Positions 30,543 through 33,154 of a stretch of 48,480 nt of DNA are shown here, one piece after another. The stretch comes from Candidatus Kerfeldbacteria bacterium (lineage in GTDB: Bacteria > Patescibacteriota > Patescibacteriia > SBBC01): positions 1-48,480 of the forward strand of contig JACQKH010000051.1 in assembly GCA_016204585.1 (NCBI GenBank). The letters are read 5' to 3'. The translations under genes and the position numbers were made by a program. The first letter of the stretch is position 1. Every line of letters begins with the position of its first letter. Below the pieces are notes generated by a model. The model saw nothing but the letters and a program-made list of their open reading frames with translations, did not search any database and was not told the origin of the DNA.

Positions 30543-30890
30543 ATGCTCCTCCGCTGGATTTTAAACTCGCTCATCATCCTGGCGCTGCCCTACCTGATTT
30601 CGGGCATCACCGTCCGTAACTTCTGGACCGCGCTGATTGTGGCTCTGGTCTTCGGCATTCTCAATGCCCTGGTCAAACCCATCCTCATCATCCTGACCTT
30701 GCCGGTCACTATTCTCTCACTCGGCCTCTTTGTTTTCATCCTCAACGCCGTTCTGCTGTGGTTAACCAGTACGATTGTCAAAGGTTTTGAAATACGCAGC
30801 TTTTCGGCGGCCGTGCTCGCAGCCGTAGTCCTCTGGGTCGGCAGCATGCTGATTAACGCTTTGTCAAAACAAAAACGGGCGCGGACTTGA
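30543..30890 (+). CDS. Holin superfamily IV / YvlD (DUF360)-like four-TM membrane protein
   Basis: 115 aa. Pattern WILNSLIILALPYLISGI....FWTALIVALVFGILNALVKPILIILTLP..ILSLGLF.FILNA..LWL is as I remember for Phage_holin_4_2. Confidence 0.7.
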   Translation: MLLRWILNSLIILALPYLISGITVRNFWTALIVALVFGILNALVKPILIILTLPVTILSLGLFVFILNAVLLWLTSTIVKGFEIRSFSAAVLAAVVLWVGSMLINALSKQKRART

Positions 30891-30914
30891 GAGTCCGCGC
30901 CTGTAACGATTTTT
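30878..30914 (+). terminator. Rho-independent terminator
   Basis: GGCGCGGACT-TGAG-AGTCCGCGCC (10-bp perfect stem; the stop codon is in the loop), followed by TGTAACGATTTTTT. Confidence 0.7.
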
Positions 30915-30944: not shown

Positions 30945-30986
30945 TGAAACAAAACGAAAAGACCCACCGGATTTCCTCCAAATCCG
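30945..30986 (-). terminator. Candidate terminator of the minus-strand small-protein operon
   Basis: Minus strand reads CGGATTT-GGAGG-AAATCCG, then GTGGGTCTTTTCGTTTTGTTTC. Confidence 0.5.
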
Positions 30987-31034
30987 ATGGGCTCTGTTGC
31001 TGCACAGAACATCTTCGCCGTTCGCGTTCGACTA

Positions 31035-31193
31035 TCACCAGTCGAACCATTCAGCGAGCTTCTCCAGGATCAGCCCGACCGGCGTGAACAGCCACCCGAA
31101 GAAATTTCCGAAGGATAACCGTGGCTGCTCACCTACATCGTTGACCCAGTCCCCCGGCGGATCTCGATGATGGTGCTTGCCCGTACTGGTCAT
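31035..31193 (-). CDS. Small protein, 52 aa (His/Pro-rich N-terminus, hydrophobic FGNFFGWLFTPVGLIL)
   Basis: AAGGGGG lies 7 nt upstream of ATG 31191-31193. The longer 75-aa version (start 31262) lacks any SD. Confidence 0.35.
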   Translation of the reverse strand: MTSTGKHHHRDPPGDWVNDVGEQPRLSFGNFFGWLFTPVGLILEKLAEWFDW

Positions 31194-31289
31194 GGCGTAA
31201 CCCCCTTGCAGTTGTTGTCCATTACCTTTGCCGAGAAACGTGTGGCTCGGCAGTACCGTCATGCGGATCGTAGTTGATGATACCGCGAA

Positions 31290-31463
31290 TCACGGTCCGA
31301 TCTTCGGTCCCAGCCATGTGGTAAGGAGTACCCACGCCACGCCGGCCAGCCATATCAGCACCAGCTTCCAGCCGAAACTGAGGGAATACTTCTTCGGCGG
31401 CGGAACGACTCGAGCCGGACCGATCGCGGGTGGAAACTTCCGCGAACTATCGGCCACGTCCAA
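31290..31463 (-). CDS. Small single-TM protein, about 55-57 aa
   Basis: GAGGAGGTGA precedes TTG 31461-31463 or GTG 31455-31457. TM segment WKLVLIWLAGVAWVLLTTWL. Below the ORF-track size cutoff; translated by hand. Confidence 0.45.
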   Translation of the reverse strand: MDVADSSRKFPPAIGPARVVPPPKKYSLSFGWKLVLIWLAGVAWVLLTTWLGPKIGP

Positions 31464-31492
31464 TCACCTCCTCACTGCCTGACGCTCACGAT

Positions 31493-31618
31493 CTAGTTAG
31501 TGAAAATGACGGTGAGCGGAATCCCGATGAACATCAGGACGATCGAACCGATCATTGCAAAAGCCATGATGATCATGGCTCTACCTGCGGTTCTGATCTC
31601 ATCACGTCCCAACTTCAT
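31493..31618 (-). CDS. Small single-TM protein, 41 aa
   Basis: MKLGRDEIRTAGRAMIIMAFAMIGSIVLMFIGIPLTVIFTN. The upstream TAG stop runs into GGAGGTG-ATG, so the SD spacing is very short. Translated by hand. Confidence 0.4.
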   Translation of the reverse strand: MKLGRDEIRTAGRAMIIMAFAMIGSIVLMFIGIPLTVIFTN

Positions 31619-31624
31619 CACCTC

Positions 31625-32296
31625 CTACTTATGGTGCGAATCCGGGACGATGTGAATGCCCCAGACCACCGTGTTGACCACGCCCAGCCCGACAGCCAGT
31701 CGGTTCTGCCACTTCGCTGACTCGTTTCGCCGATCGAGATCGCTCCGCAGGGCGTCAAACCCGCCGCGCAGCTGCGTTGCCGAACGCTGCGCTTCATCGG
31801 CCTTGGCAACGGCGGCATTGGCGACCACGAACGCCGAGTCAATCCGGTCGGACACGGCGTTGAAATCATTGTCCACCGCCTCACCCAGCTCGTTGAGATC
31901 GGCGGCCACCTGCGTTATCGCGCTGTCGAGTCGATCGGCCCGCACTTCGATGGCATACTGCCGGCTGGCCAGCTCCATCATCTTGGTGTTGATCGCCGCC
32001 AGACGCTGCTGGGTGACGCCGGCCAACTGCTTTGCCGAGTCGGCACGGGCCGCCGCCTGTTCAGCTCGGCTGTTGGCCTGCTGAGCCAATGCCGCGACCC
32101 GCTTGGCCGAGTTCAGTTCGTCCTCTAGGCGCTTAACGCGCTGGTCGTCCGCCGCCTGGCTGAAGATCATTGACACGACGGCTCCGACCAGAACGAGAAC
32201 CACTGCCCAGACACCCAAGAGCCATCCGTTCGTCTTGCCCAGCCGATCCCCAACCGTCGGTTGCGCCTTCTCCACCACATCCCAACTGCGTGACAT
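31625..32296 (-). CDS. Coiled-coil protein with hydrophobic segments at both ends (223 aa)
   Basis: GGAGG lies 8 nt upstream of the ATG. N-terminal TM segment WLLGVWAVVLVLVGAVVSMIF, about 150 aa of Ala/Gln/Arg/Asp-rich heptad-like sequence, and a C-terminal hydrophobic LAVGLGVVNTVVWGIHIV. Confidence 0.75.
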   Translation of the reverse strand: MSRSWDVVEKAQPTVGDRLGKTNGWLLGVWAVVLVLVGAVVSMIFSQAADDQRVKRLEDELNSAKRVAALAQQANSRAEQAAARADSAKQLAGVTQQRLAAINTKMMELASRQYAIEVRADRLDSAITQVAADLNELGEAVDNDFNAVSDRIDSAFVVANAAVAKADEAQRSATQLRGGFDALRSDLDRRNESAKWQNRLAVGLGVVNTVVWGIHIVPDSHHK

Positions 32297-32332
32297 GATT
32301 GTTTCCTCCTTCGCATGATACTTCAGCGGTAA

Positions 32333-32479
32333 CTACGTCAACATCGAAGCCAGGGCAAACAACGCCCCGATGATCGTTCCCCACACGATTAGTCCCATGC
32401 ATGACCTGAACATCAGACCTTCGATCAGAAGTTCCCGCGTGATCTGACCAAGGTACGCCCACTCCTCTCTGGTAGCCAC
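32333..32479 (-). CDS. Small single-TM protein, 48 aa
   Basis: GGAGGAGG lies 6 nt upstream of GTG 32477-32479. (M)ATREEWAYLGQITRELLIEGLMFRSCMGLIVWGTIIGALFALASMLT. Translated by hand. Confidence 0.5.
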   Translation of the reverse strand: MATREEWAYLGQITRELLIEGLMFRSCMGLIVWGTIIGALFALASMLT

Positions 32480-32544
32480 TGTCTTCCTCCTCCGTGATCG
32501 AACTGTCCGCCTTCAATCTCAAACAACAGTCCGGGAACAGAACT

Positions 32545-32913
32545 TCACGGAATCTCGGGGTCTGGCATGTAGATCTCGAACATCCGACACAACGCCTTCA
32601 TGCCGTCGAGCACGCCTCCCAGCTGTTCACGCGATCCGCACGTGATCTTCCATCTTCCGCCGTTACCCTCGACATCGAGTAAATAAATCGAAATCTTGGG
32701 ATCACCCACGAGGGCGTTGCGAACGACCACATTGATGGCCTTCTCACCTTCTTTCACCACTTCTGCCAGCACCTGATCGCGGCACTCTCGCAGCACCCGC
32801 TCCAGTTCCGGGCTAGATGCCCTGGCAATGAACTCATCGAGAATACGCACCATCTCGCTTTTCTTGCCTCGCCGAGCATGCACACCGATCAACGCATTGC
32901 GACTCATAGCCAT
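32545..32913 (-). CDS. Hypothetical soluble protein, 122 aa, first gene of the small-protein operon
   Basis: GGAGAGGGG lies 8 nt upstream of ATG 32911-32913 (MAMSRNALIG...). The ORF-track start at 33132 would run through the terminator/leader structures. Confidence 0.6.
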   Translation of the reverse strand: MAMSRNALIGVHARRGKKSEMVRILDEFIARASSPELERVLRECRDQVLAEVVKEGEKAINVVVRNALVGDPKISIYLLDVEGNGGRWKITCGSREQLGGVLDGMKALCRMFEIYMPDPEIP

Positions 32914-33102
32914 GACGTTTTCCCCTCTCCGAATTGTCCGCCCAAACAAAAGCGGCGAGTTGTGATCCGAACCTCCAATCTCCAACCTCCGACTTCTGCT
33001 TCTGGCACGAACAGCACCCTCCGTCCTCAAATCACAAACGGCCGTATCTTGGCACAGCGACCACGCCGCGTCAAGCGCACCCCGCGCTTGTTGAACAAAA
33101 TT

Positions 33103-33154
33103 GTAGCGTGCCCATTTATGGGCTTTGTTCATTGCCGATAAATCGGCACGCTAC
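33103..33154 (-). terminator. Compound hairpin downstream of the O-antigen-ligase-like gene
   Basis: GTAGCGTGCC (33103-33112) pairs with GGCACGCTAC (33145-33154), enclosing GCCCATTTATGGGC and GCCGATAAATCGGC. The minus strand continues AATTTTGTT. Confidence 0.4.

Follow-up and report, generated by a model that had tools for sequence, protein, structure and literature searches.

The window, by which we mean the whole 48,480-nt stretch analysed here (contig JACQKH010000051.1 of assembly GCA_016204585.1), carries on its minus strand a compact operon of Candidatus Kerfeldbacteria, a lineage of the Candidate Phyla Radiation (CPR, or Patescibacteria). Its six open reading frames (ORFs) are A122, B48, C223, D41, E55, and F52 in 5' to 3' order, with a conserved promoter and leader in front and an intrinsic terminator behind; the loci compared with the window carry L-numbers. 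From promoter to terminator the features are as follows, where TM stands for transmembrane and SD for Shine-Dalgarno sequence:

33046-33074, minus strand: putative sigma-70-type promoter (-35 TTGACG at 33069-33074; extended -10 TGcCAAGAT at 33046-33054)
32914-33044, minus strand: conserved structured leader of about 125 nt
33035-33044, minus strand: 5' box of the leader, CGGCCGTTTG
33004-33022, minus strand: invariant core of the leader, GGAGGGTGCTGTTCGTGCC
32966-32993, minus strand: GGAGGT-type repeats in the leader
32943-32957, minus strand: irregular hairpin and U-run in the leader
32930-32942, minus strand: 13-nt motif GGCGGACAATTCG, abutting the SD of A122
32545-32913, minus strand: A122, a soluble 122-aa protein
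32498-32534, minus strand: A-B spacer hairpin, holding a second copy of the motif (GGCGGACAGTTCG, 32499-32511) just 5' of the SD of B48
32333-32479, minus strand: B48, 48 aa with a GTG start, a charged N-terminal part of 25 aa and a C-terminal TM segment, tail-anchor-like
31625-32296, minus strand: C223, with an N-terminal TM segment, a helix of about 150 residues, a C-terminal hydrophobic helix, and a His-rich end (WQNRLAVGLGVVNTVVWGIHIVPDSHHK)
31493-31618, minus strand: D41, a 41-aa single-pass TM peptide
31290-31457, minus strand: E55, 55 aa with a GTG start, a Pro/Lys-rich N-terminus, and one TM segment
31194-31289, minus strand: E-F spacer, deletion remnant of a 67-aa Cys-rich gene that is intact in L258
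31035-31193, minus strand: F52, 52 aa, polar and rich in His at the N-terminus, aromatic and amphipathic in the C-terminal half
30950-30992, minus strand: intrinsic terminator of the operon, a 13-bp stem followed by a U-run
30875-30904: bidirectional terminator from the terminator scan, common to the operon and the convergent PF04020 gene

All six ORFs had been proposed in an earlier note on this DNA, and all are present where it placed them, each behind an SD. Its remark that the SD of D41 lies very close to the ATG also holds: the distance is only 2-3 nt, the SD overlaps the stop of C223 (TAGGAGGTGATG), and an alternative TTG start is found 8 nt after the SD. The fifth ORF is present as well, but the length of about 57 aa given for it needs revision, as a GGAGG stands 9 nt before the GTG at 31457 (55 aa) versus 3 nt before the TTG at 31463 (57 aa), and the GTG is most likely the start. 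Coding potential was scored with a codon-usage log-odds model for which 316 long ORFs of this genome served as training set, with true-gene segments of the same length as reference. The in-frame scores of all six ORFs fall between the 22nd and the 78th percentile of these segments (60th for A122, 33rd for B48, 62nd for D41, and 25th for E55), each ORF is the top scorer of its own six frames, and off-frame segments equal these scores in only 0.1-3% of trials (0.8% for D41, 2.3% for E55). The expectation that routine annotation would miss four of the ORFs proved wrong: the independent gene caller behind the Logan contigs L266 and L267 reported products of exactly 122, 48, 223, 41, 55, and 52 aa. 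Both contigs are 100% identical to the window and are the sole near-identical ones, and hence they offer no population variation. An identical locus is present in the DNA sequencing runs SRR12113383 and SRR12113384. The boundaries had been correctly described as a structured leader and a terminator; the former is conserved, and the hairpin and U-run of the latter are placed at 30992-30962 by the terminator scan, with a stem that is retained in L258 through a compensatory C-G to U-A change. At the level of sequence, the view that the six ORFs form one transcription unit of real or probably real genes is thereby supported. The operon is single-copy, with no paralogues elsewhere in the genome of about 1.04 Mb, and its G+C content is that of its flanks.

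The best conserved product is C223, whose previously described architecture is confirmed: a TM segment at residues ~22-50 is followed by a long helix and by a C-terminal hydrophobic segment at residues 200-217. With an alignment of 7 sequences, AlphaFold2 predicts one continuous helix over residues 16-213 without a hairpin, at a mean predicted local distance difference test score (pLDDT) of 76. Homologues in relatives are 40-71% identical, and the central block ELASxQYAIEVRADRLDS is invariant among them. A full HMMER search with a profile of the C homologues returned 7 representatives at E<=0.001 among 1.84 billion clusters, all belonging to one family-level lineage of Candidatus Kerfeldbacteria, the name that NCBI gives to the contigs of two of the homologues. 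To judge from these searches, the operon is restricted to this lineage. In the distant L258, the divergent counterpart C' resembles C223 only in the last ~30 residues. The two tails differ by 14 nt over 28 codons, and because 11 of these differences fall at third codon positions, the tail is kept by purifying selection and not by recent exchange.

The impression that no operon member belongs to a recognisable family also stands, since none of the six gave a match at a meaningful level in Pfam, NCBIfam, PHROGs, or PADLOC, and C223 matched no sequence in the PDB. A weak match of C223 to TIGR04527 (the Mycoplasma MG_279/MG_280 two-TM family) has an E-value of 0.022. Membership of C223 in the PspA/IM30 family was considered and rejected, as no match to PF04012 was obtained at E<=1; this family is absent from all 7 genomes of the bacterial family to which the window belongs, whereas 9 of 14 control genomes match it. 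In the Kerfeldbacteria literature, as far as titles and abstracts go, nothing on this locus appears among the matches listed.

Whether the small frames are conserved had been suggested as a check, with an outcome that is positive for B48 and F52 (dN/dS, the ratio of nonsynonymous to synonymous substitution rates, of ~0.4-0.5) but not for D41 and E55, to which we return below. B48, whose TM segment comprises residues 26-48, has a homologue in L008 that is 81% identical and opens the operon there, directly after the leader (dN/dS ~0.43). The homologue of F52 in L258 is 53 aa long, 50% identical (BLASTP 7e-18), and located at the equivalent operon position, with a conserved SD region and a dN/dS of ~0.46. 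These ratios show both genes to be under purifying selection. The description of F52 as a hydrophobic peptide holds for the ORF but not for a TM-like hydrophobicity: its Kyte-Doolittle maximum of 1.34 lies under the usual TM threshold, and the stretch is aromatic and amphipathic. Alongside the small frames, A122 was found to have three homologues of equal length and 60-62% identity, always in this operon and upstream of C. Its AlphaFold2 model (helix-helix-strand-strand-strand-helix, pLDDT 64) is of low confidence; A122 matches no PDB sequence, and this low-confidence model retrieves no fold with E<0.01 or a template modelling score (TM-score) >0.35.

The locus lies always between a TPR/Wzy_C gene, with relA/spoT sometimes intervening, and the genes PF04020-topA-dprA, and the synteny TPR/Wzy_C - cassette - PF04020 - topA is kept in L007, L008, L009, L257, L258, L260, and L262. 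The content of the cassette differs from locus to locus:

Window: A-B-C-D-E-(remnant)-F
L008: B-105aa(2TM)-C-56aa
L007: C-71aa
L009, L004, and L261: 221aa-C
L263 and L264: A-C
L262: 62aa(2TM)-A-169aa-C'
L258: 145aa-C'-47aa-67aa-F
L260: 55aa-C''-49aa-44aa
L257 (genus g3): leader, then 68aa(2TM), an HTH-like (helix-turn-helix) 86aa, and a 46aa TM protein; C absent

The six-gene order, the recurrence of which had been proposed as a check, was not found again in relatives. An all-against-all comparison resolves the accessory genes into a few small families that are patchily distributed among the loci, and these arrangements show the operon to be a mosaic of exchangeable modules at one chromosomal site. 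A trace of such turnover is visible in the window itself. Both ends of the 67-aa Cys-rich gene of L258 survive in the E-F spacer (96 nt), ~130 nt of the interior and the SD being lost, and the spacer is a deletion remnant of that gene; because the deletion leaves the remnant in frame with F52, a 75-aa ORF extends over both.

Three observations on the surroundings may be added. The 86-aa protein behind the leader in L257 (G005:C2, 5594-5854, minus strand) has a weak match to HTH_17, an excisionase-type helix-turn-helix (E 2.7e-4). In three loci, a relA/spoT-type gene (HD_4 + RelA_SpoT) is divergent from the leader and shares the intergenic region with it (L008 2726-4207, L257 6214-7863, and L260 2375-3580); in the window it is the TPR/Wzy_C gene, not relA/spoT, that borders on the leader. 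Just 3' of the stop of this TPR/Wzy_C gene and 5' of the operon promoter lies a hairpin (GCCCATTTATGGGC, 33103-33154, found on the plus strand by the terminator scan), which probably ends the upstream gene and insulates the promoter.

Upstream of the first gene, all loci have in common TTGAC, a gap of ~17 nt, TGnCAAGAT, a CGYCGTTTG box, the core GGAGGGTGCTGTTCGTGCC, and the motif GGCRGACAATTCG at the SD. TTGAC and AAGAT are invariant or near-invariant in the leader alignment and in further loci. The promoter at 33046-33074 was not listed by a simple promoter scan, its -10 element being a weak match to TATAAT, and we infer its role from conservation and position. Two classes of leader can be told apart. 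In the short class the core itself makes a hairpin that is followed by a U-run, a clear terminator-like element (GGAGGG.../...CCCUCU-UUUUU). Long leaders, including that of the window, contain inserted GGAGGT-type repeats and a separate hairpin with U-run between core and motif (GGUCGG-loop-CCGACC-UUUUU). For either class, RNAalifold predicts a helix between core and motif (33004-33019 with 32931-32942 in the window). When this helix was tested on a trimmed alignment of 11 leaders against 500 shuffles, 87.5% of the cells were standard pairs compared with 81.5±1.7% in shuffled alignments, and the covariation score was 0.182 compared with 0.094 (0 of 500 shuffles reaching the observed value in either case), figures that have to be read with the fact that the structure was derived from the same few and related sequences. 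Sliding the 3' partner by 1-3 columns drops the paired cells to 32-50%, and a loop-proximal pair alternates between A-U, C-G, and G-C. The comparison thus shows a predicted core:motif helix to be conserved next to the first SD.

When 401 genomes of the class were sampled, the leader pattern turned up in 3 and was confined to this family. Across the leader and promoter region (window 32914-33074, minus strand; L007, L008, L009, L004, L257, L258-L262, and L264), conservation is stronger than in any gene behind it. In Rfam, the whole window searched at gathering thresholds gives tRNAs only, and between 30850 and 33250 the sole match at E<=1 is the terminator-like ncS025, below threshold. Because the leader is highly conserved, persists without C223, falls into structural classes, and has no Rfam match, it is a candidate for a lineage-specific cis-regulatory RNA. 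Scanning genome and metagenome contigs for the 15-mer GRTGCTGTTCGTGCC was unspecific; the matches listed are chance matches without the second motif.

Other ways in which the leader might act were considered. Ribosome-mediated attenuation through a leader peptide (MLFVP.../MP...) was rejected because the upstream ORF is between 2 and 72 codons long and its frame relative to the motif varies between loci. A GTG 9 nt after a GGAGG is conserved in the leader; in L262 the upstream ORF reads Met-Pro-stop, and by its codon score the leader ORF ranks at the 2nd percentile of true genes. Translation of a leader peptide is hence regarded as unlikely. The genome encodes a CsrA homologue (PF02599, 85.9 bits; G000 contig C36:8499-8654), and long-class leaders carry several GGA/GGAGG repeats. 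Titration of CsrA by the GGA-rich leader was set aside: the helix encloses the GGA of the motif, short leaders have no GGA repeats, and the motif is unique to the locus.

The motif is also found inside the operon. Its second copy in the window has one mismatch, and apart from these two copies it is unique in the 1.04-Mb genome. The A-B spacer is predicted to fold into a local hairpin (GGACUGU...ACAGUUC) with a mean upstream-paired probability of 0.87, in which the A-to-G change of the motif is mirrored by a change in the 5' arm. Whereas the window has this one internal copy, before B48, the motif precedes three genes in L008, three in L262, and two in L261. All copies with up to two mismatches are on the coding strand and immediately 5' of an SD, and the reverse strand is free of the motif in 13 of 14 loci scanned. 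Internal copies sit in degenerate copies of the leader and are predicted to pair with upstream sequence. A further element, (GGAGG)RTGTTCYGTG, lies ~20 nt before the operon terminator (window 30993-31020, minus strand), occurs in all loci (L003, L008, L009, L007, and L258), and resembles the leader core GGAGGGTGCTGTTCGTG; because its frames are inconsistent between loci, it is probably non-coding.

Taken together, and by analogy with known modules, the operon may encode a lineage-specific membrane complex, conditionally expressed and organised around C223, that serves maintenance or remodelling of the envelope or membrane, a reading to which we assign a rough probability of 0.45. A sigma-70-type promoter would drive the structured leader, followed by six translationally packed genes and the intrinsic terminator. 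C223, with its membrane anchor, long helix, and constrained C-terminal helix, would be the core, acting as scaffold or effector of a membrane-embedded complex. B48, D41, and E55 are predicted to pass the membrane once with almost no residues beyond the TM segment, their basic N-termini suggesting an N-in orientation, and F52 might be an amphipathic member of the complex. Pairing of the leader core with the 13-nt motif directly 5' of the first SD would place a helix where it could control initiation, while the hairpin and U-run between core and motif suggest attenuation; by one or both of these routes, the leader may gate expression so that the complex is produced only under particular conditions. 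In its evolution the operon is a mosaic of exchangeable modules, and degenerate copies of the leader that end in the motif often stand before internal genes. The absence of PspA/IM30 from all 7 genomes of the family can be taken as an open niche for an analogue, and the complex would be analogous, not homologous, to Psp/Lia-type modules.

Several findings weigh against this reading. Profiles tie C223 to neither PspA nor LiaH nor any other family, the AlphaFold2 support for its single helix is modest (7 sequences, predicted TM-score of 0.28), and complex formation, topology, and a role in stress or the envelope are pure inference. C is dispensable, because genus g3 retains the leader without it. 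No homologue of D41 other than itself was found among 5.8 billion proteins, and E55 has no detectable homologue. On the side of the RNA, the terminator-like hairpin in the leader of the window is irregular and was not picked up by the terminator scan, and this leader is no more stable than shuffled sequence (minimum free energy z -1.57). Most of the core:motif helix is invariant, with 12 of 16 pairs lacking two-sided (compensatory) change, so that the covariation is carried by four loop-proximal pairs among 11 related sequences, and one pair is lost in several variants of the motif (G4 to A).

The alternative that fares best, unlikely as we consider it, places C223 at the cell surface as a rod of ~20-30 nm that is anchored N-terminally and reaches with its C-terminal helix the surface or a host membrane; variable partners and mosaic content would then reflect host adaptation of a presumed episymbiont. 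The uninterrupted AlphaFold2 helix without a hairpin agrees with such a rod, as do the C-terminal helix being the most constrained part of the protein, the basic N-terminal flank that by eye fits an N-in orientation in several homologues, the rapid turnover of gene content among close relatives, and the adjacent conserved gene for a Wzy_C/TPR surface-glycan-type protein. However, the alignment behind the single-helix model is shallow, and C223 could just as well fold back into a hairpin whose two ends share one membrane; the small partners have hardly any residues outside the cell, and the host association of the lineage is assumed.

A second alternative concerns the gene count: only A122, B48, C223, and F52 would be genes, while D41 and E55 would be chance ORFs in a decaying G+C-rich spacer. 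In its favour are the lack of homologues of both, the tight spacing between SD and ATG in D41, the gene decay demonstrated in the adjacent spacer, and the fact that ORFs of such length are common on both strands. We hold it to be rather improbable. Both ORFs score as coding, are best of their six frames, and have low off-frame rates (see above); both encode a clean layout of basic N-terminus and TM segment; and the starts can be reconciled with the SDs through the GGAGG at 9 nt in E55 and the TTG in D41. In 7 of the 8 loci that include the 3' flank of C, moreover, C is directly followed by a small ORF with one TM segment and a strong SD, a position-equivalent arrangement in relatives, and GGAGGTGA just 3' of the C stop is conserved in 4 of 5 loci inspected (the window counted). 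Homology of E55 to these ORFs of relatives was looked for and found unsupported (shuffle z 2.5-2.8; no BLASTP alignment).

A module for competition or self-protection, in which the small hydrophobic peptides would act on membranes as toxins or resemble bacteriocins, accompanied by immunity proteins and tightly controlled by the leader on account of their toxicity, appears improbable to us. Several tiny hydrophobic ORFs whose content differs between strains at one fixed locus would fit it, and the strongly structured leader with its terminator-like element implies tight control. Yet there are neither double-glycine nor other leader peptides, nor genes for processing or export; PADLOC and Pfam give no toxin or immunity match; the peptides have an N-in, tail-anchor-like layout instead of that of secreted products; and the most conserved member is a 223-aa helical protein and not a peptide.

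A phage origin had been among the possibilities raised in the earlier note, and its pointer to a convergent holin-superfamily-IV-like gene is correct, as this neighbour belongs to PF04020 (Phage_holin_4_2, E 5e-31). C223 has the spanin-like combination of N-terminal TM segment and coiled coil. Its PHROG matches to spanins and a holin have E-values of 0.004-0.009 and fall on the coiled-coil region; those to the Rz-like i-spanin PHROGs 739 and 22892 (E 0.0053 and 0.0088, 17-18 bits) cover residues ~29-117 only and are not significant, and unrelated coiled-coil families score comparably. XhlA (PF10779) reaches 17.6 bits (E 0.0045) against a gathering threshold of 34.7 bits. A tblastn search of C223 against 50,697 phage records gave nothing, no relative was found in IMG/VR, and no endolysin, integrase, or other phage gene is nearby. 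The neighbours, a TPR/Wzy_C gene, PF04020, topA, and dprA, are not the lysis-cassette context of an i-spanin, and among the small ORFs no signal peptide with lipobox, as in an o-spanin, was seen by eye. That the operon is a domesticated or decaying lysis cassette of spanin-, XhlA-, or holin-like type acting with the convergent gene is thus largely refuted and very improbable, because viral relatives are lacking, the G+C content is native, and the locus is single-copy at a fixed site, while the PF04020 gene ends at a terminator of its own and is retained also in the genus without C, and CPR bacteria are not known to have the outer membrane on which spanins act.

A bolder combination of ideas, doubtful in our estimation, would make C223 an envelope-spanning, fusogen-like rod or tether to host membranes with strain-specific partners and, at the same time, the operon a modular design in which each cistron has its own leader-derived hairpin ending in GGCRGACAATTCG. 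If it were true, this hairpin would be both a common riboregulatory handle and the homology by which gene modules are swapped between strains. Apart from this combination, should the recurring hairpin next to the SD be functional, it would coordinate and reshuffle cistrons within an operon in an unusual manner; should it have no function, what is left is an ordinary lineage-specific operon of hypothetical membrane proteins. A very large portion of the protein families of CPR bacteria is uncharacterised, and no class is annotated less than that of small membrane proteins. The locus provides a compact and well-delimited test case of five or six proteins encoded in one transcription unit and lacking known relatives, in which a constrained long-helix protein, a candidate cis-regulatory RNA, and visible gene turnover (swaps and a deletion remnant) come together. 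New here are the mosaic operon, the repeated SD-adjacent motif, and the gene remnant.

To return to the envelope complex that we prefer, the closest parallel among known systems is offered by the Psp and Lia operons (pspABCDE and liaIH), which likewise combine a helical coiled-coil protein of ~220 aa with several very small membrane proteins, single-pass or peripheral, in one operon, conditionally expressed as the present one may be. The resemblance is architectural only, as C223 has no sequence or profile similarity to PF04012. C223 furthermore has hydrophobic ends of its own whereas PspA is peripheral, and in place of PspF/sigma-54 or a LiaRS-type regulator, control here is apparently exerted by an RNA leader. 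Phage spanins (Rz-like) and XhlA share with the C223 locus an N-terminal TM segment with a long coiled coil after it, small hydrophobic ORFs, and a holin-superfamily-IV-like neighbour, but C223 is hydrophobic at its other end too, where it has a conserved His-rich tail, and its locus is fixed in the chromosome and has no endolysin. TIGR04527, a two-TM family without a significant match, is similar to C223 in its long helix ending in a C-terminal membrane segment. The ElaB/YqjD (DUF883) and SNARE-like proteins, which were compared with C223 by architecture, are tail-anchored long helices. The leader, finally, resembles trp-type attenuators and riboswitch leaders in being a promoter-proximal conserved RNA with predicted mutually exclusive pairings, a hairpin and U-run, and an SD-abutting helix. 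It differs from them in having no Rfam match and no conserved leader peptide, and in a feature that is unusual for such leaders: the 3' strand of its helix recurs in front of internal cistrons of the operon, where its 5' partners are degenerate.

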